Shown: positions 39,972 through 58,215 of the stretch, in pieces
Position numbering within the stretch: the stretch's first letter is position 1
Layout of the letters: each line of letters begins with the position of its first letter
DNA from: Rhodanobacteraceae bacterium
GTDB taxonomy: Bacteria; Pseudomonadota; Gammaproteobacteria; Xanthomonadales; Rhodanobacteraceae
Assembly: GCA_050738155.1 (NCBI GenBank)
Contig: JBOHYW010000002.1
Coordinates: 2,838 to 66,837, forward strand
DNA: 64,000 nt
Reading direction: 5' to 3'
Position numbers and translations under genes: made by a program
The notes under the pieces: model-generated
Told to the model about the DNA's origin: nothing
Seen by the model: only the letters and a program-made list of their open reading frames with translations
Databases searched by the model: none

Positions 39972-40690
39972 CCCGGAGTCGTCGAGGCCGGTCACTGGAA
40001 GCACTTGTGCGATGCACCCCGGCAAGGCCCATCGCGCTTCACGTCATCATCGTCATCTTCACGATACGTCCGCCGCACCTCGAAACCGGCACCACACATC
40101 GATTTTCGTCAAGCGGATCTGCTGCGTGTTTGCTGCGGGCGACAAGTCGAATGACCCACCACGCTCCGAATTGTTCCACTCGACTTTCTGGTGAAATCCG
40201 GAAATGCAATTGTTGCAATGACGCGCTGAACGGACCCATCACGAATGTGGCAATCAGTGGGAATAATTTTCACATTCAGTCATCAGACAGACAGTTGAAC
40301 GGTCATAAAGCCGAGTGCGCGCGGAACCTTGACGTGATATATCCGCGGCAAATATCGTCCACTGACAATGTCAAGGCGCCTTGATTCAGCCAAACATGCT
40401 GGACACGATCAAACCAACGTGGCTTACTGACACAACCTTGTCGTTGTCGTGTGATCACGCTGTCGGCCGAAGTGCGGTTCGCATCGGCGGGCGATACTCG
40501 CGATCGACGGCGTCGTTCACGCGCCGCGCCTGGAACACGCAGGCGACTACCGCCACGCCCGCCGCACGGCGAAGTTCGGCATGCCGCCCGATGCTTTACG
40601 CAGGAACCATGCAGCCCGACGGTGCCCGTTGAGGGCACTGAACGACCGCGTTTCGTGGCGATGAGCCATCACGGATTCGAGGCACTGACC

Positions 40691-41866
40691 ATGAATATTT
40701 CACAAGCAACCCCTTCCGGATCGATTGAGTCGTGGTCCAACCGCGCGTTCGCACGTCTGCGCATGGCACTCCGGTGGCGCGCATTGATTGCACTGTGCCT
40801 GTGCCTTGCAATGGCGGGCTGTGTGTGGGCGCCCGGCCAGGACATGTCGATGAAGGTACGCGGCGAGCCCAATTCGGACTATGTCAAGCTGGTGCCGATC
40901 ACGCCGCAAGTGCTGGCCAATTACGAGCAACCCGGCTCTTCTCCGATCAATATCCCGTCGACATTGCTCGACTACCAGCCGCAGCCATACGAGATCGGCC
41001 CCGGCGATACGCTTTACATAACGGTCTGGGATCATCCCGAGCTGACCTCGCCAGCCGGCTCGCAGCAACAAACAAAAGCCAACGGTCGCCTGGTACGGCC
41101 CGACGGCACGATTTACTACCCGTTTGCCGGCTCGGTGCACGCCGCCGGCATGACCATCGAGCAATTGCGCGACCTGCTCAGCAACAAGCTCGCCACCTAC
41201 ATCAACAACCCCAAGGTCGACGTCAGCGTCGTCAACTACGGTAGCCAGCACGTGTTGCTCGGCGGAGCATTCACCAAGACCGGCCCGATCCCCATCACCA
41301 CGGTTCCGCTCACGCTGGGCGAGGCAATGGCATCGGCGACCGTGGACACCAGCAATGCCAACCTTTCGAATGTATTACTGGAACGGAACGGACAGATTTA
41401 TCACCTGAACATGTATGCCCTGCAACAAAAAGGGCTTTCCAAACGTATTTATCTCGAGTCTGGGGACAGGGTTTATCTACCCTATAACGATGCGCAGGAA
41501 ATCTATGTCATGGGCGAAGTCGTGCACCCGATGGCACTGCGTTTCAAAAATGGCAACATGAGTTTGACGCAGGTAATCGGCAAGGCCGGCGGGCTGAATC
41601 AATTGACGTCCCAAGGCAAGATTTACGTCATTCGCGATACGTCAATGCATGGCAAGGGCAATCCCGGTGCCACCGTATACGAACTGGATGCCAAATCGCC
41701 GGTCGCTTTCGCATTGGCTGATCAATTCAAGGTTCATCCGGGCGACGTCGTATTCGCGTCGGCGGCCGGCATTACCCGCTGGAACCGCTTCCTGACGCAG
41801 TTGCTTCCGATCACCAGTGCAATCAGCGCCACCGCGGCGGCTCAGTACAACTTCGAACGCAAGTAG
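40691..41866 (+). CDS. wza: outer-membrane polysaccharide export lipoprotein; alternative start at 40763 gives the signal MALRWRALIALCLCLAMAGC
   Basis: LAMAGC lipobox, IGPGDTLYITVWDHPELT Poly_export motif, and repeated SLBB-like segments. Confidence 0.88.
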   Translation: MNISQATPSGSIESWSNRAFARLRMALRWRALIALCLCLAMAGCVWAPGQDMSMKVRGEPNSDYVKLVPITPQVLANYEQPGSSPINIPSTLLDYQPQPYEIGPGDTLYITVWDHPELTSPAGSQQQTKANGRLVRPDGTIYYPFAGSVHAAGMTIEQLRDLLSNKLATYINNPKVDVSVVNYGSQHVLLGGAFTKTGPIPITTVPLTLGEAMASATVDTSNANLSNVLLERNGQIYHLNMYALQQKGLSKRIYLESGDRVYLPYNDAQEIYVMGEVVHPMALRFKNGNMSLTQVIGKAGGLNQLTSQGKIYVIRDTSMHGKGNPGATVYELDAKSPVAFALADQFKVHPGDVVFASAAGITRWNRFLTQLLPITSAISATAAAQYNFERK

Positions 41867-48099: not shown

Positions 48100-49461
48100 T
48101 TACCCCCTTCCAAAGGAAGGGGGTCGATGCGCAGCATCGGGGGGATGCGACAACGCAGCCTCGAGGTCATGTTCACCCGCACCCGTCACGAGCACCTCGG
48201 CAAACTGCCCCGGATTCAATGATTGGCCGTCGCCAATCCGCACTACGCCGTCGATCTCCGGTGCATCGGCGGATGAGCGCGCGATGGCACCATCGGCGGT
48301 CGCTTCATCCACCAACACTTGCATCGTGCAGCCGATCTTGCGTTGCAGCTTGGCAGCGGAAATCTCTGCCTGCACTTCCATGAAGCGTTCGAGCCGGTCT
48401 TCCTTCAATTCTTCCGGCACCGGATCCGGCAATTCGTTGGCTTTGGCGCCCCCCACCGGCGAATAGGCGAACGCACCGACGCGATCAAGCTGCGCTTCGC
48501 GCAGGTAGTCGAGCAGCTCTTCGAATTCGGCATCGGTCTCACCGGGAAAGCCGACGATGAAGGTGCTGCGGATGGTGAGGCCCGGGCAAACCTCGCGCCA
48601 CGCGCGGATGCGGTCCAGGGTTTTTTCCGCGTGTGCCGGACGCTTCATCAGTTTCAAAATACGTCGCGAAGCATGCTGGAACGGAATGTCGAGATATGGA
48701 AGAATTTTTCCATCCGCCATCAGCGGGATGACTTCGTCGACGTGCGGGTACGGATAAACGTAGTGCAAGCGCACCCACGCGCCGAGTTCGCCCAAGGCCC
48801 GGCACAGGTCGGTCATGCGCGTGCGGTACGCGTTGCCGCGCCATTCGCGCTCCGCATATTTCAGGTCGACGCCATAGGCGCTGGTGTCCTGCGAAATCAC
48901 CAGCAATTCCTTGACGCCCGAGCGCACCAGTTTTTCGGCCTCGATCAGCACCTCGTCGATCGGACGCGAAACGAGATTGCCACGCATCGAGGGGATGATG
49001 CAGAAGGTGCAACGGTGGTTGCAGCCTTCGGAAATCTTCAAGTATGCGTAGTGCTTCGGCGTCAATTTGATACCGGCGTCAGGGACCAGATCCACGAATG
49101 GATCGTGCGGCTTCGGCAGCGCCTCGTGCACCGCGCCCATCACGCTGGCGTAATCCTGCGGACCGGTGATCGCCAGCACGTCGGGGTACGCTTCGCGGAT
49201 CAATGCATCACGTTTGCCGAGACAGCCGGTGACGATGACGCGGCCGTTTTCGTGCAAGGCTTCACCAATGGCGTCCAGCGATTCCTGCACCGCGGCATCG
49301 ATGAAGCCGCAGGTGTTGACGATCACCGCGTTGGCCTTGTCGTAACGCGGGACGATCTGGTAACCCTCGGCCTTCAGCTGGGTGAGGATGCGTTCGGAAT
49401 CGACCAGTGCCTTGGGACAACCGAGACTGACGAAACCGATCTTGGGGGACGCTGCGGGCAT
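48100..49461 (-). CDS. rimO: ribosomal protein S12 methylthiotransferase
   Basis: [17 protein letters not shown], radical-SAM [11 protein letters not shown], and a TRAM-like C-terminus. Confidence 0.92.
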
Positions 49462-49582
49462 TGAGGCAAACCGGTCGAAAACAGCCGCCTATTCTAGCGT
49501 GCTGCCCTCTGCTCGCGACTTCTGGTTACCCGCGGGACGGTACGCCAGGAAATTCCGGAAGAATCGTCGCCATGCTCGCTGG

Positions 49583-49617
49583 CAAAACGCACGCCTCCTC
49601 AATTGCGAGGAGGCGTG
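49583..49617 (-). terminator. rho-independent terminator after the autotransporter gene
   Basis: CACGCCTCCTC-(6 nt)-GAGGAGGCGTG, a perfect 11-bp stem. On the minus strand it is followed by CGTTTTGCC. Confidence 0.75.
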
Positions 49618-49682
49618 AATCCCAACCCCGGCCGGCGCTTGTCTTTCGATGTCACCGGCCGACCCGATCACCGCTGCGTTGT

Positions 49683-52600
49683 TCAGAAACGCAACGTGCT
49701 CTCCAGCATCGCCGCCACGGCCTGTTGGTGCAGACCCTGCTGACCCTCGAGGCCAAGATGGAGTTCGAGGTCGCGGGCCGGCCACAGTCCCACGCCCATC
49801 TTCAGCACCGAGTAGTTGCGCGACAGGCCGACGCCGCTCAATGGCATCCAGTCGTCAAAACCCGTGAACGACGCCTGGAACGCTTGGCCGTACTGGCTCA
49901 ACGTGTGCCGCCATTCGGCGCTGCCATCCAACTGCAAGCGCATGCCATTCGACAGATTCCAACCGCGCGTGGCGCGCATGCCGAGACCGGCCTGCCAACG
50001 GCCGGTGCCGCGACTGTCCGCCTTCAACCCGAACCCGCCGGCACCGTGTTCGGCGAATGCGCCCTCGTCGAGTTGCTCGTAGCGCAGGTTCACGAATGGC
50101 GCGATGCTGGCGCCCGCAAAATGCAAACGCATGCCGGCTTCGCCCGTCGCCAGGTTGAAGCTGCCATTGAAGCCGCCGGCAACCGGCGCGGCAATCTGGC
50201 CCAGCATCAGCAGGCGCTGCATGTCCTGGCGATACCAGCCGATACCGACGCTGCCGCCGACGAACCACGGACCGCGCGCCCAACCGCCATACACGGTCAC
50301 GCTGTTGGCACGATTGCGGCCGTGGTCGAAAGCGCCTTCGATCTGGCCGAACCCGTGGCTGGCACTGAGCGCATAACCGACGACGCCATTGCGGCCTACC
50401 CTGAAATCCGTGCCGATCATGCTGCCGGTATTCTGGACCGTGGTCCCCGCATACCCGCTTGCCTGCATGCTGCCTTGCCAGCCAAGGCCAGTAGCCCATA
50501 CGCCGGCCTTTTGATGGCCTTCGCGGACCGCGTCGAGATGCCCCGCCAAGGCAGCGGCGGAGATGTCAAGGCTGTCGAAAAGCATCGCCGCGCTGGCCGC
50601 TGGCAATTGTCCGGACAGACTCTGCAGCGACGCCTCGGCAAACGCCGCCGTCGGCGCATGCTGGATCGCGCCCGCCGCTTGCAGCGTGGCGAGTTCCGAT
50701 GCGTCGACACTGCCGCCGGCCGCCAGCCGCGCATCCAGCATGTCGAACGAACTCTGCAAGCGCGCCGCGGCCTGCAGGTCCGGTGCGCTGGTCATGCCCA
50801 TGGCTTGCGCGGCCTTGCTGATGTTGAGCGAGGTCGTGTCGAGCCAGACAGACGTGGGCGTGTAGCCGATCGTGGATTGCAGGAACATCCCCGGCGACAA
50901 CGTCAACGCCGCAAACTTGCCGTCGACGCCGTTGCCGGCGGTCAGGACATCCTGATGCTTGGCTTTGATGTAACCGTGATCGGCACCCAGAACATTGAGG
51001 TCACCGGCCAGCGACGCGTTGCCTGCGACGTTCAATTCCGAGCCAAGACTGACCGAGAACACCCCGCTCGCGGTCTGTGTGAAGTTGCCGCCGACGCGGG
51101 TATCGCCACCGCGCACGATCACCGTTCCGGCATTGGACAACGAACCGCCAATCCGCGGAGCCGCATCGAGCGTCCCGGCGCCCGTGACGTCGACATTGCC
51201 CGCCAAGGCACGGCTGTCGGCCCGCAACACGCCGCCAGCCACCGTCCAATTCACGGACGCGTCACCAACACCCATCAGTGTCCAGACGCTCGAACCGGAT
51301 TTCTCGAAATTCCGGAAGCCGACGTATTGGGTGCCGGAGTAGCGGCGCGGCAGGGTCGAGTCGATCGTGGACACATCGAAGTAATTGCCGAACCAGCCGT
51401 TGTCGTCACCGCCCAGGTTCAAGGTATCGCCACCATTGCCGGCACCGCTGATACTCACCACGTTGCCAATGAACTGGCCGCCGGATTCGAGCGTCAGCGT
51501 GTTGCCACCGCCGGAAAATTCCACGGCATTGGCGGGCAGCCCGAAACCACCCGGGAAGCCGCCCACGATCACGCCCGCGTTGACGATGGTGCTGCCACCG
51601 GTACTGACGACACCGGCACCGCCTGCCCCGGTTTGCCCGGACGCGCCACCGAACCACCAGGAACCGCCGTAGCCGGACTGCCCACCGGCACCACCGCTGA
51701 TGATGCCGACATTGACCAACGTGAAGTCGGAACCGCTCACACCAGCGCCACCCTGTCCGCCGTTGCCGCCGGTCCCGTTGTAGCCATAAGCATTGCCACC
51801 GGAACCCGCACTGCCACCCATGACCAAGCCGGCGTTGACCATTGCAAAACCGGAACCGTCGCCCCCGGCCTCTCCATCGGCGCCATTACCTGCAACGGCG
51901 TTGCCGCGGAAGGAACTCTGGCCGTCACTGCCGTCCATACCGAACACGCTGGCTCGCGATGCAACATCGAGCGCCGTGCCGGCGGCCATGCTCACGCCGC
52001 TGGTCAGCGCTGCCATGCTGCGACCGGTGCCAACTTGCAACGTTCCGCCCGCCACGCTGGTGCCGCCGTCGAACGGGTTGTACCCGCCGAGAATCAGGGT
52101 GCCAAGGTCGGTCTTGCGCAACCCGGCGTCGCCGCGCAAGTCGTTGTCGATCTCGGCGGTCATGCCGGCACCCGCCGCCGTGCCGTCACCCACGCGAATG
52201 ATCGGTGCCGCGCCTTGATGTCCGACCAGCGTCAGGTCATCGCCGGTCAGACGGTAACCATCCACCGCAAACTGCATGCCGGTGGTTTGCACGCGTCCCC
52301 AGCGATTGCTTGTCCGAACCTTGCCCGGCGTGCCAGTGAACACCGCAAAACCCGGATTCGGTGTCATGCGACCGCGCTGACTGGTGCCGTTTGTCGTCAC
52401 CTGTACCCAGTCCGACGATCTGGCTGTCCAGTTACCGTTGCCACCGAAGGAAACATGCGCGGGCGCCCAGATGTTCATGCCAAGGCCAAGCCCTGCGAAC
52501 AGGTCAATCTGGTTACGGCTGGCATCATTGACCACCGCGTAATCGCTGGTACCGGTTCCCGTCGGCACCGCGCCGATGTTGATACAACCGGTATTGCCTG

Positions 52601-55600
52601 CCACGGCGCAACCGCTGACGTGCAGCGTGCCGTAATCGAACAAGTGATAGAGGCCTGGATCGGGCGCACCGGCGCCGGCCAAATCCAGCGTCGAACCGGA
52701 ACCGGCAAAGCCGAGCGTCCCGCCAACTGCAACCCGATCGTTCGAAGTCGCCCCGTTGACCGTAATCAGATCGAACTGCAAATCGCTACCGGCATCCAGC
52801 GACAAGTTGCCGCCGATCGTGAGCTTGCCAGCCGTACCCGTCGTACCCGGCGACAGCATGCCACCGGGCTGGACTTCGACGTTGCCGGCGATCGCACCGA
52901 AGCCGCCCAGCAGCGCCGCGGGATCCACCGTGACGTTGCCACCGAGGGAAGTGCCATTGTCGGCCGCGGTGCCACCCACGAGGAGACTGCCGGCATGCAC
53001 CTCCCATGGCGCCGTCACGGAAGTGCTGCCGGTGAGGATCCAGGTGCTGCTGCCGGTCTTCAGATACTGGTTGAATCCGTAGTATTGAACGCTACCCGTC
53101 CACCCAGTCGGGGCACTGACCACGACCTGCGACAGGTCGAACCTGGCGTCTGCGCCACCCCCCAGGTTCAGCGTGTCGCCACCGGCCTTGCTACCGCTGG
53201 TGCTGACGACGTTGCCGACGAAACCATAGCCACTGGCCAGCAGCAACATGTTGCCACCACCCGAAAAGTCGACGGCATCCGCCCGTGTCGTGCCATCGCC
53301 GGACAAACCACCCGCAATGACACCGGCGTTCAGGACCCGGGCACCGCCCGTGGAGACGACGCCGACACCGCCCGCGCCTGCTGCACCGTATAGTCCCTCG
53401 CCACCGTAGCCACCGACGACGAGGCCGCTGTTGATCAGGGCAAACCCGCTGCCGATCACGCCCGCGCCACCGGTCCCCGCGGCTTCGTAAAAACCAAGGC
53501 CTCCCGTGCCACCGGCCACCACGCCTGAATTGATCAGGCTGAATGCCGTGCCGCGGACGCCCGCACCGCCCGTGCCGCCCGTGAAGCTGCTGGCCGCTCC
53601 GGACAAGTTGTAACCCTGTCCACCCGTCCCGCCGAGTGCGTAACCGCTGTTGGACGCCGCGAAACCGTTGCCCGAAATGCCGGCGCCACCCGTGCCGGCA
53701 ACCGCGGCAACGCCGTAACCGCCATCGCCGCCCTGGACCAGCCCGCTGTTGAGCAACCTGAAGTCACGCGCGCCGCTGTCGGACGCGGTGACAGGCATAC
53801 CACTGATCCCGGCGCCACCGGCACCGCCGGCTCCGCTGGCTCCCAAGCTCGGAATGAAACCCCCGTTGTTGCCCCTGCCGCCAAGCACGTAGCCACCATT
53901 GATGATGGTGGCGTCACCGCTCGCGGACACACCCGAACCGCCGGCGCCAGCGACCGAGCCGATGGTGCCGAGGGCACCTGCACCACCCTGGATATAGCCG
54001 CTGTTGCCCACCTGCGTTTCGGCACCACCCACGCTCAAGCCGCTACCACCGGCGCCGCTGTAGATCGCCCCGCGACCACCGTTGCCACCGGCGACGTAGC
54101 CGTCATTCGTCACCGACGAATTCCCCGACGCCACGACTCCGGCGCCACCCGCACCGCCAGCGCCACCGGCGCCATAACCGGCACTGCCGAAATAGAAGCC
54201 GGCGGTACCGCCGCCGCCGCCGATGATCTGGCTGTGGTTGATCACGCTGATGTCGGTTCCGCGGACCGCGTCACCACCGGCACCGCCATTGCCGTAGTAA
54301 CCAGACCCGCCGTGACCACCGCCGATGCCGCCGGCGTTGTTGGTCACCGAGAAATCGTGGCCCTGGATACCCGCGGCACCGTTGCCCGCATTGCCGAAAT
54401 AGCCGGCTCCACCGTAGCCGCCGAACAGCGAATTGTTGTTGGTCGCCACGAAATGGCTGCCGCTGATGCCGGCGCCCGCGTTGCCCGCATGCGCGTAGGC
54501 CCCGATGCCGCCGGCGCCCCCGCGCATGGTGGTGTTGTTGGTGACCGTCGACAGCGCGCCACCGGTTGCCACCATCGCGGCACCACCGTTGCCGCCGGCC
54601 GCGTACAACCCGTAACCGCCGCGACCGCCATGGACGTAACCCGCGTTGGTCAGGGCGAAACCGCTGCCGACGATGGCCGCGCCGCCATCCCCCGCAGTCC
54701 CGTATTGCCCCTTTCCGCCATCGCCACCTGCCACGCCCCCATTGTTGTTGAGCAAGGTGAAGCCATTGCCCACGACACCCGCGCCACCACTGCCCGCGGC
54801 TTCGTAGAAGCCAAGGCCACCGGTGCCACCCGCAACGTTCCCCGAGTTCGAAAGTTCGAATGCGACGCCGCTGACGCCGGCCCCACCTGCGCCACCGACA
54901 TAGCTGCTGGCAGTACCGGACAGGTTGTAGCCCTGACCGCCGGTGCCGCCGGTGATCGCGCCCGAATTGTCGGCAGCGAATCCGTTGCCCGAAACGCCCG
55001 CGCCACCATTGCCGGCGGTGGCGCTCACGCCGTAACCGCCATCGCCACCGCTGAGGTTGCCATCGTTGGTCAACTGGAACGCGGCACCGCCCACGGCCAG
55101 GGATGCACCGCTGATCGCCGCGCCGCCACTGCCGCCGTTGCCGCTGACGCTGCCGTTGAAACCACCGTTGCCACCGATTCCGCCGGACGTGCTGCCGTGA
55201 TTGATGACACTGGCACCACCCGCGGCGACGGTCCCCGCACCACCAGCGCCAGCACTGCCACCGACGCCACCCAGACCGCCGGCACCACCCGCGACCGCAC
55301 CGTAGTTGGTCACCATCACGTTGCCGCCGGTCGCCATCACGGCCGCGCCACCGCTACCGGCATCGAGCACGCTCTGGCCACCCATGCCGCCATACACGCT
55401 GCCTGTATCCGCATTGACGAGCGCCGAGCGACCGGAAGCAACGATGCCGATACCGCCATTGCCGCCGCTGCCACCGGTACCGTACGCCCCGCCACCGTGC
55501 GGGAACAACCCGCCGTTGCCGCCGGCACCACCGCCGATCTGGGCGTAATTGGCCAGCGAGACATCGCTGCCGTCGATTGCGTCCGCGCCTTGGCCGCCGT

Positions 55601-56477
55601 TGCCGAAATACCCCATGCCGCCCTTGCCGCCGAAAATGCCACCGGCGGTGTTGACCACGCGGATATTTCCACCCGCGATCGCGGCGGCCCCGTTGCCACC
55701 GTCGCCGAAGAAACCGTAGCCGGCGTTGCCGCCGAACAGGGCGTTGTTGTTGACGACCACAAAACGGCTGCCCACGACCCCGGCGCCGCCGTTGCCGCCA
55801 GCGCTGTAAACCCCGATGCCGCCAGCCCCGCCGCGGATCATCACGTCGTTGGTGATGACGGTGCGCCCCGCGCCCCTGACGACTACCGCGGCACCTCCCG
55901 CGCCGGCGGTAGCCCCATAGCCATAGCCGCCCACTCCGCCATGCACGTAGCCGTCGTTGGTCAGGTTGAACGCACCACCCATGATGGCGCTGCCGCCATT
56001 GCCGCCGGCCGCACCGTAGCCCGTGCCACCGGCACCACCACCCACGCCGCCATCAACGGTCAACTTGAAGCCGCTGCCGAGAAACCCCGCGCCACCTGCA
56101 CCGCCGTGCCCGCCCGTAGCCGCCGCGTCGCCGCCCTTGCCGCCCGTGACGAAGTAATTGGCCACCAGGCACATGTCGCTGCCGGCGGGTGCGCCTGCCG
56201 CCGCACCGCCCGCGGTGCCATTGCCATCAGAACCGGTGATCCCCGCCGCGCCAGTCGCCGAACCAATCGGGGCCGCGCCCGTCGGACAGGTCGCCGACCA
56301 AGCGGGCAAGGCCACGGCCGCCACACCCAGTGCCGCAACGCAAGCCAGCGCCAGCGGTCGTCGACGCGCCGATGCACCCCCAGTCGCACCCGCACCGCGT
56401 GGATGCGCGGCCAGTTCCGAAGCTACCTGCAGGATGCGCAGCGAGCGGTTCCATACCAGACTGTAGATGCGGTTCAT
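49683..56477 (-). CDS. type Va autotransporter, 2264 aa, with a glycine-rich repetitive passenger
   Basis: ESPR-type extended signal peptide MNRIYSLVWNRSLRILQVASE. Passenger made of GGxGGxG/NxG coils. PATR-like motifs (GFNQYLKTGSSTWILTG, FRNFEKSGSSVWTLMG). C-terminal ~270-aa beta-barrel ending in LRF. Confidence 0.9.
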   Translation of the reverse strand: MNRIYSLVWNRSLRILQVASELAAHPRGAGATGGASARRRPLALACVAALGVAAVALPAWSATCPTGAAPIGSATGAAGITGSDGNGTAGGAAAGAPAGSDMCLVANYFVTGGKGGDAAATGGHGGAGGAGFLGSGFKLTVDGGVGGGAGGTGYGAAGGNGGSAIMGGAFNLTNDGYVHGGVGGYGYGATAGAGGAAVVVRGAGRTVITNDVMIRGGAGGIGVYSAGGNGGAGVVGSRFVVVNNNALFGGNAGYGFFGDGGNGAAAIAGGNIRVVNTAGGIFGGKGGMGYFGNGGQGADAIDGSDVSLANYAQIGGGAGGNGGLFPHGGGAYGTGGSGGNGGIGIVASGRSALVNADTGSVYGGMGGQSVLDAGSGGAAVMATGGNVMVTNYGAVAGGAGGLGGVGGSAGAGGAGTVAAGGASVINHGSTSGGIGGNGGFNGSVSGNGGSGGAAISGASLAVGGAAFQLTNDGNLSGGDGGYGVSATAGNGGAGVSGNGFAADNSGAITGGTGGQGYNLSGTASSYVGGAGGAGVSGVAFELSNSGNVAGGTGGLGFYEAAGSGGAGVVGNGFTLLNNNGGVAGGDGGKGQYGTAGDGGAAIVGSGFALTNAGYVHGGRGGYGLYAAGGNGGAAMVATGGALSTVTNNTTMRGGAGGIGAYAHAGNAGAGISGSHFVATNNNSLFGGYGGAGYFGNAGNGAAGIQGHDFSVTNNAGGIGGGHGGSGYYGNGGAGGDAVRGTDISVINHSQIIGGGGGTAGFYFGSAGYGAGGAGGAGGAGVVASGNSSVTNDGYVAGGNGGRGAIYSGAGGSGLSVGGAETQVGNSGYIQGGAGALGTIGSVAGAGGSGVSASGDATIINGGYVLGGRGNNGGFIPSLGASGAGGAGGAGISGMPVTASDSGARDFRLLNSGLVQGGDGGYGVAAVAGTGGAGISGNGFAASNSGYALGGTGGQGYNLSGAASSFTGGTGGAGVRGTAFSLINSGVVAGGTGGLGFYEAAGTGGAGVIGSGFALINSGLVVGGYGGEGLYGAAGAGGVGVVSTGGARVLNAGVIAGGLSGDGTTRADAVDFSGGGNMLLLASGYGFVGNVVSTSGSKAGGDTLNLGGGADARFDLSQVVVSAPTGWTGSVQYYGFNQYLKTGSSTWILTGSTSVTAPWEVHAGSLLVGGTAADNGTSLGGNVTVDPAALLGGFGAIAGNVEVQPGGMLSPGTTGTAGKLTIGGNLSLDAGSDLQFDLITVNGATSNDRVAVGGTLGFAGSGSTLDLAGAGAPDPGLYHLFDYGTLHVSGCAVAGNTGCINIGAVPTGTGTSDYAVVNDASRNQIDLFAGLGLGMNIWAPAHVSFGGNGNWTARSSDWVQVTTNGTSQRGRMTPNPGFAVFTGTPGKVRTSNRWGRVQTTGMQFAVDGYRLTGDDLTLVGHQGAAPIIRVGDGTAAGAGMTAEIDNDLRGDAGLRKTDLGTLILGGYNPFDGGTSVAGGTLQVGTGRSMAALTSGVSMAAGTALDVASRASVFGMDGSDGQSSFRGNAVAGNGADGEAGGDGSGFAMVNAGLVMGGSAGSGGNAYGYNGTGGNGGQGGAGVSGSDFTLVNVGIISGGAGGQSGYGGSWWFGGASGQTGAGGAGVVSTGGSTIVNAGVIVGGFPGGFGLPANAVEFSGGGNTLTLESGGQFIGNVVSISGAGNGGDTLNLGGDDNGWFGNYFDVSTIDSTLPRRYSGTQYVGFRNFEKSGSSVWTLMGVGDASVNWTVAGGVLRADSRALAGNVDVTGAGTLDAAPRIGGSLSNAGTVIVRGGDTRVGGNFTQTASGVFSVSLGSELNVAGNASLAGDLNVLGADHGYIKAKHQDVLTAGNGVDGKFAALTLSPGMFLQSTIGYTPTSVWLDTTSLNISKAAQAMGMTSAPDLQAAARLQSSFDMLDARLAAGGSVDASELATLQAAGAIQHAPTAAFAEASLQSLSGQLPAASAAMLFDSLDISAAALAGHLDAVREGHQKAGVWATGLGWQGSMQASGYAGTTVQNTGSMIGTDFRVGRNGVVGYALSASHGFGQIEGAFDHGRNRANSVTVYGGWARGPWFVGGSVGIGWYRQDMQRLLMLGQIAAPVAGGFNGSFNLATGEAGMRLHFAGASIAPFVNLRYEQLDEGAFAEHGAGGFGLKADSRGTGRWQAGLGMRATRGWNLSNGMRLQLDGSAEWRHTLSQYGQAFQASFTGFDDWMPLSGVGLSRNYSVLKMGVGLWPARDLELHLGLEGQQGLHQQAVAAMLESTLRF

Positions 56478-56564
56478 TGGGCTGTCCTTATGTGATTTGA
56501 GGGTGAAGTCGACAAACGAAATCCACGGTCAACCAGCAACACTCAAACTCGAACCGGCCGATCG

Positions 56565-57377
56565 CTAGACGATGAGTACCCCGCGCGGATTGAGCTTCGG
56601 GTCGCGCCAGAAGGCATCGTGCTCGAAGCGGTGGAAGAGGTCGGGGGGAAGGATGGTGTCGCGCTGCTGCACCGCCACGCGCGGCCGCACCCGATGCAGG
56701 CCCGGCGTGCCCGCACGTGCATCGAACGCTTCGGCATCGAATTCGACGTGCTCGAAATCGTGCGCGAAGCGCGGTTCGCCGATGAAATCGTAGATGGCGG
56801 CAACGGCGCCAGCCGGATCGCGGGTCAGCGTTTCGTATTGCACCAGCATCAACTGCGCGGTGTGCTCGCCATAGAAGGCTTCCTTCAGGGCATCGAAGGG
56901 GTAACCAACCAGGCCTTCGGCGCTGGCCAGCCCGTTGGCGCGCGTATATACGGTGCCGCCGACGCTGTAATTGAAGATCGAGGACGGGCTGAAAGCATTG
57001 TTGCGTACCAACCGTTCGACGCTGTCGATGATCCACGACACGTCGCGCACGCAGGCAATCACCCGGCTTTGCGGAAACAGGCGCGCGAGTGCCGGCATCC
57101 GAGCGCACCAACTGCGGTTGGTGTCGAACACGACCTCGGCCGGACTGTCGGCGTAATAGTTCTCGAACAGGCCGCGCAGAATGCGCTGGCGTTGCGCGTC
57201 GGTGGTGAATACCGAGAACTCGTTGCTGCCGCCCATCTTGGTCAGCAGGTCGGCGAACAGACCCGCGAGCGGTCCGCTCATGCCCGCCTGGAAGCGCGGG
57301 TTCTGACGGAGCAATGCGCCCAGCAGCGTAGACCCCGAACGCGGCAGCCCGGAAATGAAATGGATGGTGCGCTCCGT
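56565..57377 (-). CDS. sulfotransferase-family protein (NodH/Sulfotransfer_3-like); no canonical start codon upstream of its P-loop
   Basis: Own translation: (ACG)ERTIHFISGLPRSGSTLLGALLRQNPRF..., then the 249-aa track ORF. AAGGGAGGTG Shine-Dalgarno lies 4 nt before the ACG at 57375..57377. The first canonical in-frame start (TTG at 57314) lies after the P-loop. Confidence 0.7.
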   Translation of the reverse strand, partial: TERTIHFISGLPRSGSTLLGALLRQNPRFQAGMSGPLAGLFADLLTKMGGSNEFSVFTTDAQRQRILRGLFENYYADSPAEVVFDTNRSWCARMPALARLFPQSRVIACVRDVSWIIDSVERLVRNNAFSPSSIFNYSVGGTVYTRANGLASAEGLVGYPFDALKEAFYGEHTAQLMLVQYETLTRDPAGAVAAIYDFIGEPRFAHDFEHVEFDAEAFDARAGTPGLHRVRPRVAVQQRDTILPPDLFHRFEHDAFWRDPKLNPRGVLIV

Positions 57378-57390
57378 AACACCTCCCTTC

Positions 57391-57415
57391 GCACTTCACG
57401 GTCCCCGTGAAGTGC
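57391..57415. promoter_or_regulatory. perfect 11-3-11 palindrome abutting the sulfotransferase Shine-Dalgarno
   Basis: GCACTTCACGG-tcc-CCGTGAAGTGC, read directly. It sits in the 160-bp divergent region between the sulfotransferase and the DLH gene. Confidence 0.5.
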
Positions 57416-57537
57416 ATCACAACGCAAGATATCGCTGCATGCTAGCAGAAAAAAACGGGACGCAATCGGCGGGATCGCTGCAAGCTGCCCGACAACCGCG
57501 TACGCTGCCAAGATCGCAACTCTTGGGAGTAACCGTC

Positions 57538-58215
57538 GTGGGCGAATCGATCCGCTTGAACACTGCCGGCATGCACTGCATCGGCGCCTATGTCGCCAAG
57601 CCGACCGGTAAACCCAAGGGCGGTATCGTGGTGGTGCAGGAAATTTTCGGCATCACTGCGCACATCCGCGAGGTCGCCGACGGTTTCGCGAAGCACGGCT
57701 ACACCGCGATCGCGCCGGCGTTCTTCGATTACGTCGAGAACGACGTCGAACTCGAATACGACAAGCCCGGCATGGAGCGCGGCAAGGGCCTCGCGGCGGA
57801 AGTGGGACTGGAGCGCGCCGTCGAAGCCGTCGCCAGCGCTGCCGACTCGATCCGGTCATCCGGAAAAATCGGCGTGGTGGGTTATTGCTGGGGCGGCACC
57901 GTCGCGCTGCTCGCGGCGCAGCGGTTGGGATTACCTGCCGTGAGCTATTACGGCGCGCGCAACGTGCCGTTCCTCGACCAGCCGCTGCAAGCGCCGGTGA
58001 TGTTCCACTTCGGTGCGAAAGATCGCTCGATTCCCCCCGACGCCGTGCAAAAGCACCGCGACGCCTACCCCTACGCACCCGTGTACGTCTACGACAAGGC
58101 CGGCCACGCCTTCAACCGCAATGTCGATCCGACGCATTACGATCCGGTCGGCGCACCGGTGGCGCTGGAACGGACGCTGGCTTTCTTCGCGAAACACCTC
58201 GCGGGCGGCGCATGA
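57538..58215 (+). CDS. dienelactone hydrolase family protein; GTG start
   Basis: GGIVVVQEIFGIT...VVGYCWGG (nucleophile Cys). GGGAG Shine-Dalgarno. The track ORF from 57355 is rejected. Confidence 0.85.
   Translation: MGESIRLNTAGMHCIGAYVAKPTGKPKGGIVVVQEIFGITAHIREVADGFAKHGYTAIAPAFFDYVENDVELEYDKPGMERGKGLAAEVGLERAVEAVASAADSIRSSGKIGVVGYCWGGTVALLAAQRLGLPAVSYYGARNVPFLDQPLQAPVMFHFGAKDRSIPPDAVQKHRDAYPYAPVYVYDKAGHAFNRNVDPTHYDPVGAPVALERTLAFFAKHLAGGA

Follow-up and report, generated by a model that had tools for sequence, protein, structure and literature searches.

To our knowledge, RaxST and RaxX are essentially the only described case of protein sulfation in bacteria, and the passengers of autotransporters are known to be glycosylated, not sulfated. 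The two closest described systems each consist of a modifying enzyme and a secreted protein. The autotransporters AIDA-I and TibA are heptosylated in the cytoplasm by Aah and TibC, which belong to the BAHT family (PMC4358343). RaxST of Xanthomonas oryzae sulfates RaxX (the RaxST–RaxX–RaxAB system; PMC4646787) and is a cytoplasmic enzyme dependent on 3'-phosphoadenosine 5'-phosphosulfate (PAPS) that has been modelled on the tyrosylprotein sulfotransferase TPST2, its key residues being R11 at the 5'-phosphosulfate-binding (5'-PSB) site and S118 at the 3'-phosphate-binding (3'-PB) site (bioRxiv 10.1101/149930). Here we describe a locus from a Rhodanobacteraceae bacterium (assembly GCA_050738155.1, contig JBOHYW010000002.1) that resembles both in part. 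In the stretch of 64,000 nucleotides analysed (the window) the gene for a sulfotransferase (ST) lies directly upstream of, and co-oriented with, the gene for a giant Gly-rich autotransporter (AT), and the pairing of this enzyme with Gly-rich exported proteins recurs in distant bacteria. We give an even chance to the reading that the ST is a dedicated cytoplasmic, PAPS-dependent enzyme that O-sulfates a Gly-rich exoprotein before its export.

The sulfotransferase–autotransporter locus

On the minus strand of the window the frame of the ST (56565..57377; 270 codons and a stop, counted from ACG; homologues 61–97% identical) is followed by a 2264-aa ORF encoding the AT (49683..56477; 26% Gly; recognized from its Pfam domains and translation) and then by the gene for RimO (48100..49461). 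The layout drawn in the initial annotation, a co-oriented ST ending 87 nt ahead of the AT start with no hairpin terminator in between, is confirmed: the spacer (56478..56564) contains no terminator-like site in a terminator scan of those positions, folds no better than shuffled sequence (z = 0.49) and carries an AGGA ribosome-binding site ahead of the AT start. The span then assigned to the ST (56477–57377) does cover the gene, although it also takes in the first base of the AT start codon. Where a terminator had been noted after the AT (49583..49617) there is a hairpin with an 11-bp perfect stem and a 6-nt loop followed by CGTTTTG (49590..49617, minus strand); this is the likely terminator of the ST–AT unit, although it is not listed by the simple terminator scan. 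ST and AT most likely form one transcription unit that ends at this hairpin, and would thus be co-transcribed. The promoter is presumed to lie in the divergent intergenic region between the ST and a dienelactone hydrolase gene (57378..57538), although a scan of 49300–58000 found no sigma-70 consensus promoter.

The arrangement (enzyme gene upstream and co-oriented, no terminator, conservation independent of the flanks) appears from the sequence to match that of a dedicated modifier–AT pair. As with Aah–AIDA-I and TibC–TibA, the gene for the modifier lies immediately upstream of a co-oriented type Va AT whose passenger is highly repetitive, and modification ahead of export, a feature of Aah and TibC, is proposed for the ST–AT pair by analogy. 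The systems differ in that a glycosyltransferase using ADP-heptose stands against a sulfotransferase that would use PAPS, in the type of repeat, in that for the ST–AT pair we infer the modification of the passenger, and in that the ST family is also paired with Gly-rich proteins that are not autotransporters.

Conservation of the pair in Gram-negative bacteria

The genome scan, with one genome taken per species, gave 80 loci with an ST 61–74% identical to that of the window, 34 of them Gram-negative and 46 actinobacterial. In all of the first three homologues looked up (L001, L003 and L005; ST 73–83% identical) the ST was directly upstream of a giant ESPR protein (ESPR being the extended signal peptide), and in about 22 of the 34 Gram-negative loci an ESPR-bearing, Gly-rich ORF lies directly beside the ST and co-oriented with it. 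These partners begin with the ESPR motif MNRIYRLVWN and contain 19–35% Gly; in most of these loci the partner is downstream of the ST and in three it is upstream. The distance from ST stop to ESPR start, taken over 22 loci, is 15–270 nt with a median of 83. The beta-domain PF03797 was present in eight of nine partner C-termini checked, being confirmed in Burkholderia multivorans, Pseudomonas, Polynucleobacter, Rhodanobacter, Dyella and a metagenome contig. Pairs were found in Dyella, Rhodanobacter, Frateuria, Oleiagrimonas, Pseudomonas, Polynucleobacter, B. multivorans and a verrucomicrobial metagenome-assembled genome (MAG).

Inside Rhodanobacteraceae alone the pair has four distinct flanking contexts: two tandem ST–AT pairs adjoin pepP in Rhodanobacter lycopersici Si-c (L001), the pair lies among resistance–nodulation–division efflux genes in Dyella terrae, it follows truB in one metagenome contig, and it stands between rimO and the dienelactone hydrolase gene in the window. 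Conservation of the pairing in relatives, on which the initial annotation had made its proposal depend, is therefore borne out in many genera with unrelated flanks. As the window holds one ESPR Gly-rich giant protein per 64 kb, adjacency by chance would be expected at the percent level at most, and the ST–AT pairing is not fortuitous. The distances between STs and those between AT beta-domains are also correlated (Mantel r = 0.385; 2 of 5000 permutations reach the observed value) and several sub-clades agree between the ST tree and the AT beta-domain tree.

The R. lycopersici genome carries at least three ST copies (L001, 587–15410, and L051). The two tandem ATs of L001 are 100% identical over their last 290 residues and their STs are only 72% identical; as STs so diverged imply old pairs, this points to gene conversion of the AT beta-domains alongside old, diverged ST paralogues. 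Two loci of other kinds were also noted. In Azoarcus indigens (L060, 11455–15351) the ST has, about 650 bp downstream, a 1298-aa ORF that begins in an ESPR-like manner (MNKLAFALIRNRHGQLQAVPETA) and was not counted as adjacent, and in a Dyella MAG (L037, 6630–7676) a second, unrelated sulfotransferase-like ORF with a P-loop lies about 3 kb downstream of the ST.

Gly-rich partners in Actinomycetota

More than half of the 80 ST loci are from Mycobacterium, Mycolicibacterium and other Actinomycetota, a phylum without autotransporters. A very large ORF of 33–48% Gly is found no more than about 600 bp from the ST in 24–28 of the 46 actinobacterial loci; it precedes the ST in the same orientation or follows it convergently. 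The neighbour in Mycolicibacterium setense matches Pfam PGRS (35 bits, cutoff 27), that in Mycobacterium sp. 050134 has a PE domain at its N-terminus (3e-30), and other neighbours have a basic, signal-peptide-like N-terminus (MAGKHSSK..RRR..GLGxGAGA...AHADG). The linkage is thus kept in another phylum and with a different secretion system. The motif hydrophobic-x-GGxGGxG is found in every ST-adjacent partner of both groups, at 1–13 per 1000 residues, and is absent from four ESPR proteins without an ST, so that the feature shared by the partners is the Gly-rich repeat and not the secretion route or the AT machinery. A metagenome scan with the AT N-terminus gave eight ESPR loci, too few for statistics but useful as a small control: both loci with an ST upstream encode Gly-rich proteins, four with 13–18% Gly have no ST, and one Gly-rich protein has no ST within 3 kb. 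The association is accordingly broader than the AT pair of the initial annotation and takes in GGxGGxG exoproteins generally, including mycobacterial PGRS proteins. The GGxGGxG repeats of these PE_PGRS and PGRS neighbours (PF00934, PF21526) resemble the Gly loops of the window passenger, but the latter has a repeat of about 33 aa with an FxLxN strand, as expected for an AT beta-solenoid, and we do not claim common ancestry.

Neighbour joining places the actinobacterial STs in a single clade next to a Dyella/Rhodanobacter branch, and STs without a Gly-rich neighbour fall mostly in two sub-clades, one from Mycolicibacter (beside ruvC) and one from Lysobacterales (beside a pyridoxal-phosphate (PLP) decarboxylase). 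This tentatively suggests, from a tree without bootstrap support, that the Gly-rich association is ancestral and was secondarily lost. In L020 (10986–12209) a class I S-adenosylmethionine (SAM)-dependent methyltransferase of about 410 aa (Methyltransf_12/25/11) follows the ST directly, and L022, L027, L034, L038, L041, L049 and L052 have one in the same position, the order being PGRS protein, ST, methyltransferase; it may introduce a second modification of the same target or may hint at a small-molecule pathway. Two contigs labelled as MAGs of Planctomycetaceae (L040) and Chitinophagaceae (L045) have STs within the mycobacterial clade, beside PGRS-type ORFs, and by this placement are probably mis-binned actinobacterial DNA.

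Motifs and predicted fold of the sulfotransferase

The ST matches Pfam Sulfotransfer_3 (PF13469; E 1.6e-18, 68.2 bits, cutoff 27) and Sulfotransfer_1 (PF00685; E 4e-9, 36.6 bits, cutoff 22), and this family membership predicts a PAPS-dependent sulfotransferase. The P-loop, HFISGLPRSGSTLL, provides the 5'-phosphosulfate-binding motif SGLPRSGST (57327..57353, minus strand), in which R13 is invariant among 17 homologues and which aligns with the TPST PSB loop GVPRSGTT; in the 3'-phosphate-binding motif RDVSWIIDS (57021..57047, minus strand) R111, D118 and S119 are invariant in the 17 homologues. Both PAPS-binding motifs (R13; R111...D118-S119) align with those of TPSTs, and R13 and S119 nearly coincide with R11 and S118 of RaxST when compared by published residue numbers. 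As the P-loop begins at residue 9 there is no signal peptide, and the enzyme is predicted to be cytoplasmic. A further likeness to RaxST is that the latter is encoded beside its secreted protein substrate, and a distant ST homologue (from Caballeronia, below) lies beside a C39-ABC/HlyD/OEP system; the difference lies in the substrate, which for RaxST is a 60-residue peptide with one Tyr, resembling ribosomally synthesized and post-translationally modified peptides, as against a Gly-rich repeat protein of 2000 aa.

The best PDB profile matches of the ST family are TPST1 (4.5e-7) and TPST2 (7.6e-6). The AlphaFold2 model of the ST agrees with this in that its 13 top Foldseek matches are all TPST chains (8e-10 to 4e-8), with polyketide sulfotransferase domains (3.5e-6), heparan/carbohydrate 3-O-sulfotransferases (1e-5) and mycobacterial Stf1 (1.4e-5) lower down. 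TPST1 and TPST2 (PDB 5WRI/5WRJ, 3AP1-3 and 9WWE) share the PSB and PB motifs with the ST; they differ in being Golgi-lumenal membrane proteins, overall identity is 17–20%, and the conserved ST region 127–157 has no confidently modelled counterpart in them. On the strength of motifs and model we regard the ST as TPST-like and do not call it a TPST. The initial annotation had offered as its alternative a NodH-like carbohydrate enzyme placed beside the AT by chance. NodH, NoeE and LpsS are likewise PAPS-dependent bacterial sulfotransferases, but the NCBIfam NoeE model scores only 17.6 bits on the ST (cutoff 500), its match being confined to the P-loop, no match to Sinorhizobium/Rhizobium plasmids was found at E 1e-5, and no exopolysaccharide (EPS), glycosyltransferase or other glycan gene is linked to the pair; with TPSTs as the closest solved structures, that alternative finds no support.

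Passenger repeats of the autotransporter

The AT begins with an ESPR (MNRIYSLVWNRSL...; 56334..56477; PF13018, E 4e-10), contains one passenger-associated transport repeat (PATR; 52032..52121; PF12951, E 7e-8) and ends in a beta-barrel translocator domain (49749..50501; PF03797, E 4e-39 with the C-terminus scanned alone), the last residues being ...LRF; all features of the AT given here are on the minus strand. With its ESPR, its passenger and a beta-domain with an aromatic C-terminus it is, by sequence criteria, a type Va (classical) AT. The passenger is built from Gly-rich repeats of about 33 aa of the form FxLxNxGxVxGGxGGxG[Y/F]...GxGGAGV, for example GGDGGYGVSATAGNGG. The repeat listing places them in a main block at aa 170–790 (54108..55970) and in a third, shorter block at aa 1544–1625 (51603..51848); a second block lies between these at aa 906–1045 (53343..53762) and is a near-duplicate of aa 467–640. 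In nucleotide terms a four-repeat module is thus present twice almost verbatim, at 53343–53762 and at 54558–55079 (for example GGDGGYGV..GGTGGQGYNLSG..GGTGGLGFYEAAG), and the similarity of the two copies indicates a recent internal expansion of the array. In all 17 clear repeats of this AT a Tyr or Phe lies no more than four residues after GGxGG, and Tyr follows 38% of its GGxGG motifs as against 11% expected; this pattern makes Tyr a plausible acceptor in the window AT.

The passenger was also considered as a PGRS (PF21526) or Chlamydia-PMP-type protein, and this was rejected as there was no Pfam match even at E <= 10. A search with a 341-aa passenger segment found no homologues at E <= 0.001, probably owing to composition filters. 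The AlphaFold2 model of a 241-aa segment, made without an alignment, has a pLDDT of 50 and shows short strands with a period of about 33 aa; this is in keeping with a solenoid, but the quality of the model does not allow the exposure of Tyr to be judged.

Start codon and integrity of the sulfotransferase gene

The 270-codon length and the P-loop given in the initial annotation stand, but a canonical start codon does not: the frame runs from ACG at 57377 to a TAG stop at 56567–56565 (minus strand) and is closed upstream by an in-frame TGA at 57398–57396. Between this TGA and the P-loop there is no ATG, GTG or TTG, the first in frame being a TTG at 57314, past the P-loop. In an alignment of start positions the ACG sits where homologues have ATG or GTG, five codons before the His of IHFISG. 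It is preceded by a Shine–Dalgarno sequence, AAGGGAGGTG (57380..57389, minus strand), whose GGAGG ends 4 nt before the ACG, and the same purine-rich element precedes the ATG or GTG of the homologues. The 97%-identical relatives (L089 and L090) also have ACG at the conserved start with the same Shine–Dalgarno sequence, which implies that the canonical start was lost before the split between these relatives and the window. The window carries one A more than a 97%-identical relative, and this shifts an upstream ATG (57417) out of frame; in the relative this ATG is in frame but lies in a stretch that diverges like non-coding DNA. A programmed +1 frameshift at GGG-AGG, joining the upstream ATG to the ST frame, was considered and judged unnecessary, given that the ACG is also present in the relative whose ATG is in frame, and given that non-coding pattern of divergence. 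The two genes differ at 46 codons synonymously and at seven nonsynonymously, from which we conclude that the ST is under purifying selection, and no internal stops or frameshifts occur over its 270 codons. Near-cognate initiation at ACG occurs in bacteria, with low efficiency. Such initiation, or an error of one base in the sequence, is at least as likely as decay of the gene.

More distant homologues

Homologues with 48–52% identity to the ST were found in other contexts. On a plasmid of Nostoc sp. UHCC 0302 (L095, 7119–12047) the ST lies between an RTX protein, which has a Gly/Tyr region rich in GGY, and cysC, after which comes a hemopexin-repeat protein. A plasmid of Caballeronia sp. SBC2 (L096, 1563–15333) encodes first a repeat protein that has an M10 protease domain and acidic ..E-x-L-Y-D-F.. 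units, then the ST, then a type I secretion system (T1SS) of C39-ABC/HlyD/OEP composition. On the megaplasmid of Ralstonia solanacearum OE1-1 (L094, 8992–18774) the gene of a 48%-identical ST stands ahead of cysC and a very large non-ribosomal peptide synthetase (NRPS) gene; this homologue has 133 records in Ralstonia, one of which labels it raxST. Judged by gene content, the Nostoc and Caballeronia loci look like cases of sulfation of T1SS substrates and the Ralstonia locus suggests a sulfated non-ribosomal peptide, so that the likely acceptor in these contexts would be a peptide or a secreted protein, with a private PAPS supply in the two that have cysC. The locus of a 38%-identical homologue in Acetobacter has no context of the T1SS, cysC or NRPS type.

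Genes around the pair in the window

The flanks of the pair are housekeeping genes, for an SLT/LysM transglycosylase, GreA/B and RimO on one side and for a dienelactone hydrolase, a HIT protein, PxpB/C/A, DUF969 and a pyroglutamyl peptidase on the ST side; no transposase or integrase gene flanks the pair in the window. The nearest polysaccharide gene encodes a Wza-like exporter (Poly_export and SLBB; 40451..41866, plus strand), which shows that the window includes an exopolysaccharide locus. It lies about 8 kb beyond the 3' end of the AT gene and about 15 kb from the ST, with the SLT/LysM, GreA/B and RimO genes in between, and nearby genes give no support to a role of the ST in lipopolysaccharide or EPS synthesis. 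The dienelactone hydrolase ORF is listed as 57355–58215 (plus strand), with a start that falls within the ST frame; Pfam matches it only from residue 76 onwards, and the GTG at 57539, preceded by GGGAG, is the likelier start. A 310-aa ORF that overlaps the ST (56488..57420, minus strand) was rejected as a gene, being an out-of-frame, Arg/Ala/Pro-rich read-through typical of high-GC DNA.

Discussion

The pathway we favour, at even probability, would run as follows. The ST would use PAPS in the cytoplasm to O-sulfate hydroxyl-bearing residues of the passenger's GGxGGxG repeats while these are still unfolded, ahead of Sec export, the likeliest acceptor in the window AT being the Tyr after GGxGGxG and elsewhere perhaps Ser or Thr, or a few sites only; the repeat domain displayed on the surface or released would in this way be sulfated. 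The sequence analysis establishes the order of the genes, the identity of their domains, a gap free of terminators, the conserved pairing and the likeness to TPST; we infer co-transcription, the role of the neighbour as substrate, the residue modified and the effect of sulfation (through charge, ligand mimicry or binding). Somewhat less probable than not, in our estimate, is the wider proposal that a single TPST-like ST family is dedicated to O-sulfating GGxGGxG exoproteins whatever their export route; this would be a widespread, undescribed modification system spanning the type Va ATs of Proteobacteria and Verrucomicrobia and the PE_PGRS and signal-peptide PGRS proteins of mycobacteria, with relatives that serve T1SS substrates.

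Several observations weigh against sulfation of the partner protein. Some partners are nearly without Tyr (PGRS proteins have 0.1–0.5%, that of L062 0.1%) and there is no consensus around Tyr in 22 Gram-negative and 19 actinobacterial partners, only a weak enrichment of Gly and nothing acidic, so that Tyr cannot be the general acceptor. The emphasis that the initial annotation placed on Tyr is weakened by the partners almost devoid of it, although it suits the window AT, where Tyr follows GGxGG, and a rule of 'GGxGG then Tyr', strong in the window AT, was rejected as a general one. The AlphaFold2 model of the ST is moderate (pLDDT 71; TM about 0.5 to TPST), and in HMMER alignments the catalytic Glu99 of TPST (GEE) is matched by G-Met33-Ser34 of the ST, although another conserved acidic residue or a His could serve as catalytic base. 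About 35–45% of ST family members have no Gly-rich neighbour, among them the ruvC-linked Mycolicibacter clade and the Lysobacterales clade beside the PLP decarboxylase; the SAM methyltransferase that follows the ST at many actinobacterial loci could indicate a small-molecule pathway; and an ST that keeps 61–74% identity between phyla is also what one might expect if the acceptor were one invariant small molecule. The lack of a canonical start codon means that the ST may be poorly expressed or inactive in this organism.

Some of these points would fit a different reading, in which the ST is coupled to Gly-rich proteins but does not modify them: its acceptor would be a glycolipid of the envelope, a polysaccharide, a small metabolite or the like, which these proteins bind, are anchored to or act with. 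The contrast between an enzyme highly conserved across phyla and hypervariable partners, the many solitary STs, the added methyltransferase, the Ralstonia homologue in an NRPS cluster (where the acceptor would be a small peptide or metabolite) and the unaligned TPST Glu all suit such a non-protein acceptor. Against it, in none of the contexts examined is the pair accompanied by a gene for a glycosyltransferase or for lipid or polysaccharide synthesis, the best fold and profile matches are protein sulfotransferases and not carbohydrate or lipid ones, and a spacing of 15–270 nt with co-orientation to an exoprotein gene is typical of modifier–substrate pairs, so that we hold this explanation to be unlikely, though the most serious competitor to sulfation of the exoprotein itself. 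Much the least probable is that the linkage is merely historical, the ST having an unrelated housekeeping role and hitch-hiking with a mobile or recombination-prone Gly-rich cassette. The pair does occur in many genomic contexts, the ST tree departs from the species tree in a way that implies lateral transfer, and the homogenized beta-domains of paralogous ATs testify to active recombination. However, adjacency holds in about 60% of loci over Proteobacteria, Verrucomicrobia and Actinomycetota, it is kept in three arrangements (ST upstream of partner, partner upstream of ST, and convergent) and with partners exported by different systems, and neither transposase nor integrase stands beside the pair in the window; it is this survival of the linkage through three arrangements, several secretion systems and three phyla that makes hitch-hiking so unlikely.

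A separate question, compatible with any of these explanations, is whether the ST of the window is a recent pseudogene or its sequence contains an indel error, the module being non-functional or mis-read here. The missing canonical start between the TGA at 57398–57396 and the P-loop and the extra A that displaces the ATG at 57417 would fit this. It is nevertheless improbable given that the relative shares both the ACG and its Shine–Dalgarno sequence, that synonymous differences outnumber nonsynonymous ones 46 to 7 despite the shared loss of the start, that 270 codons are free of stops and frameshifts, and that ACG can, as noted above, initiate translation in bacteria.

In the literature searched, the coverage of which is incomplete so that absence is not proof, we found no report of a sulfated AT or of an ST linked to autotransporters or PGRS proteins, and the word sulfotransferase is absent from a 2025 review of PE_PGRS evolution (PMC11939664). 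If sulfation of the exoproteins by the ST is correct, the window AT would be the first sulfated autotransporter, and PGRS domains would for the first time have an enzyme known to act on them. Hosts use sulfated Tyr and sulfated glycans as recognition signals. In that case the repeat proteins would work in part through their sulfate, either by its charge or because it imitates sulfated ligands of the host; this would be a new mechanism of surface charge or ligand mimicry, and the enzyme could perhaps be used to sulfate recombinant proteins in bacteria. The cross-phylum linkage provides a testable hypothesis for the giant Gly-rich ATs of soil- and plant-associated proteobacteria as well as for mycobacterial PGRS proteins, and names one small enzyme that can be deleted or co-expressed as a test; should the ST act elsewhere, the conserved linkage would still name a functional partner for the repeat proteins. 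The finding extends both the modifier–autotransporter operons and protein sulfation of the RaxST type, and there is a substantial chance that it represents a new and widespread modification system.

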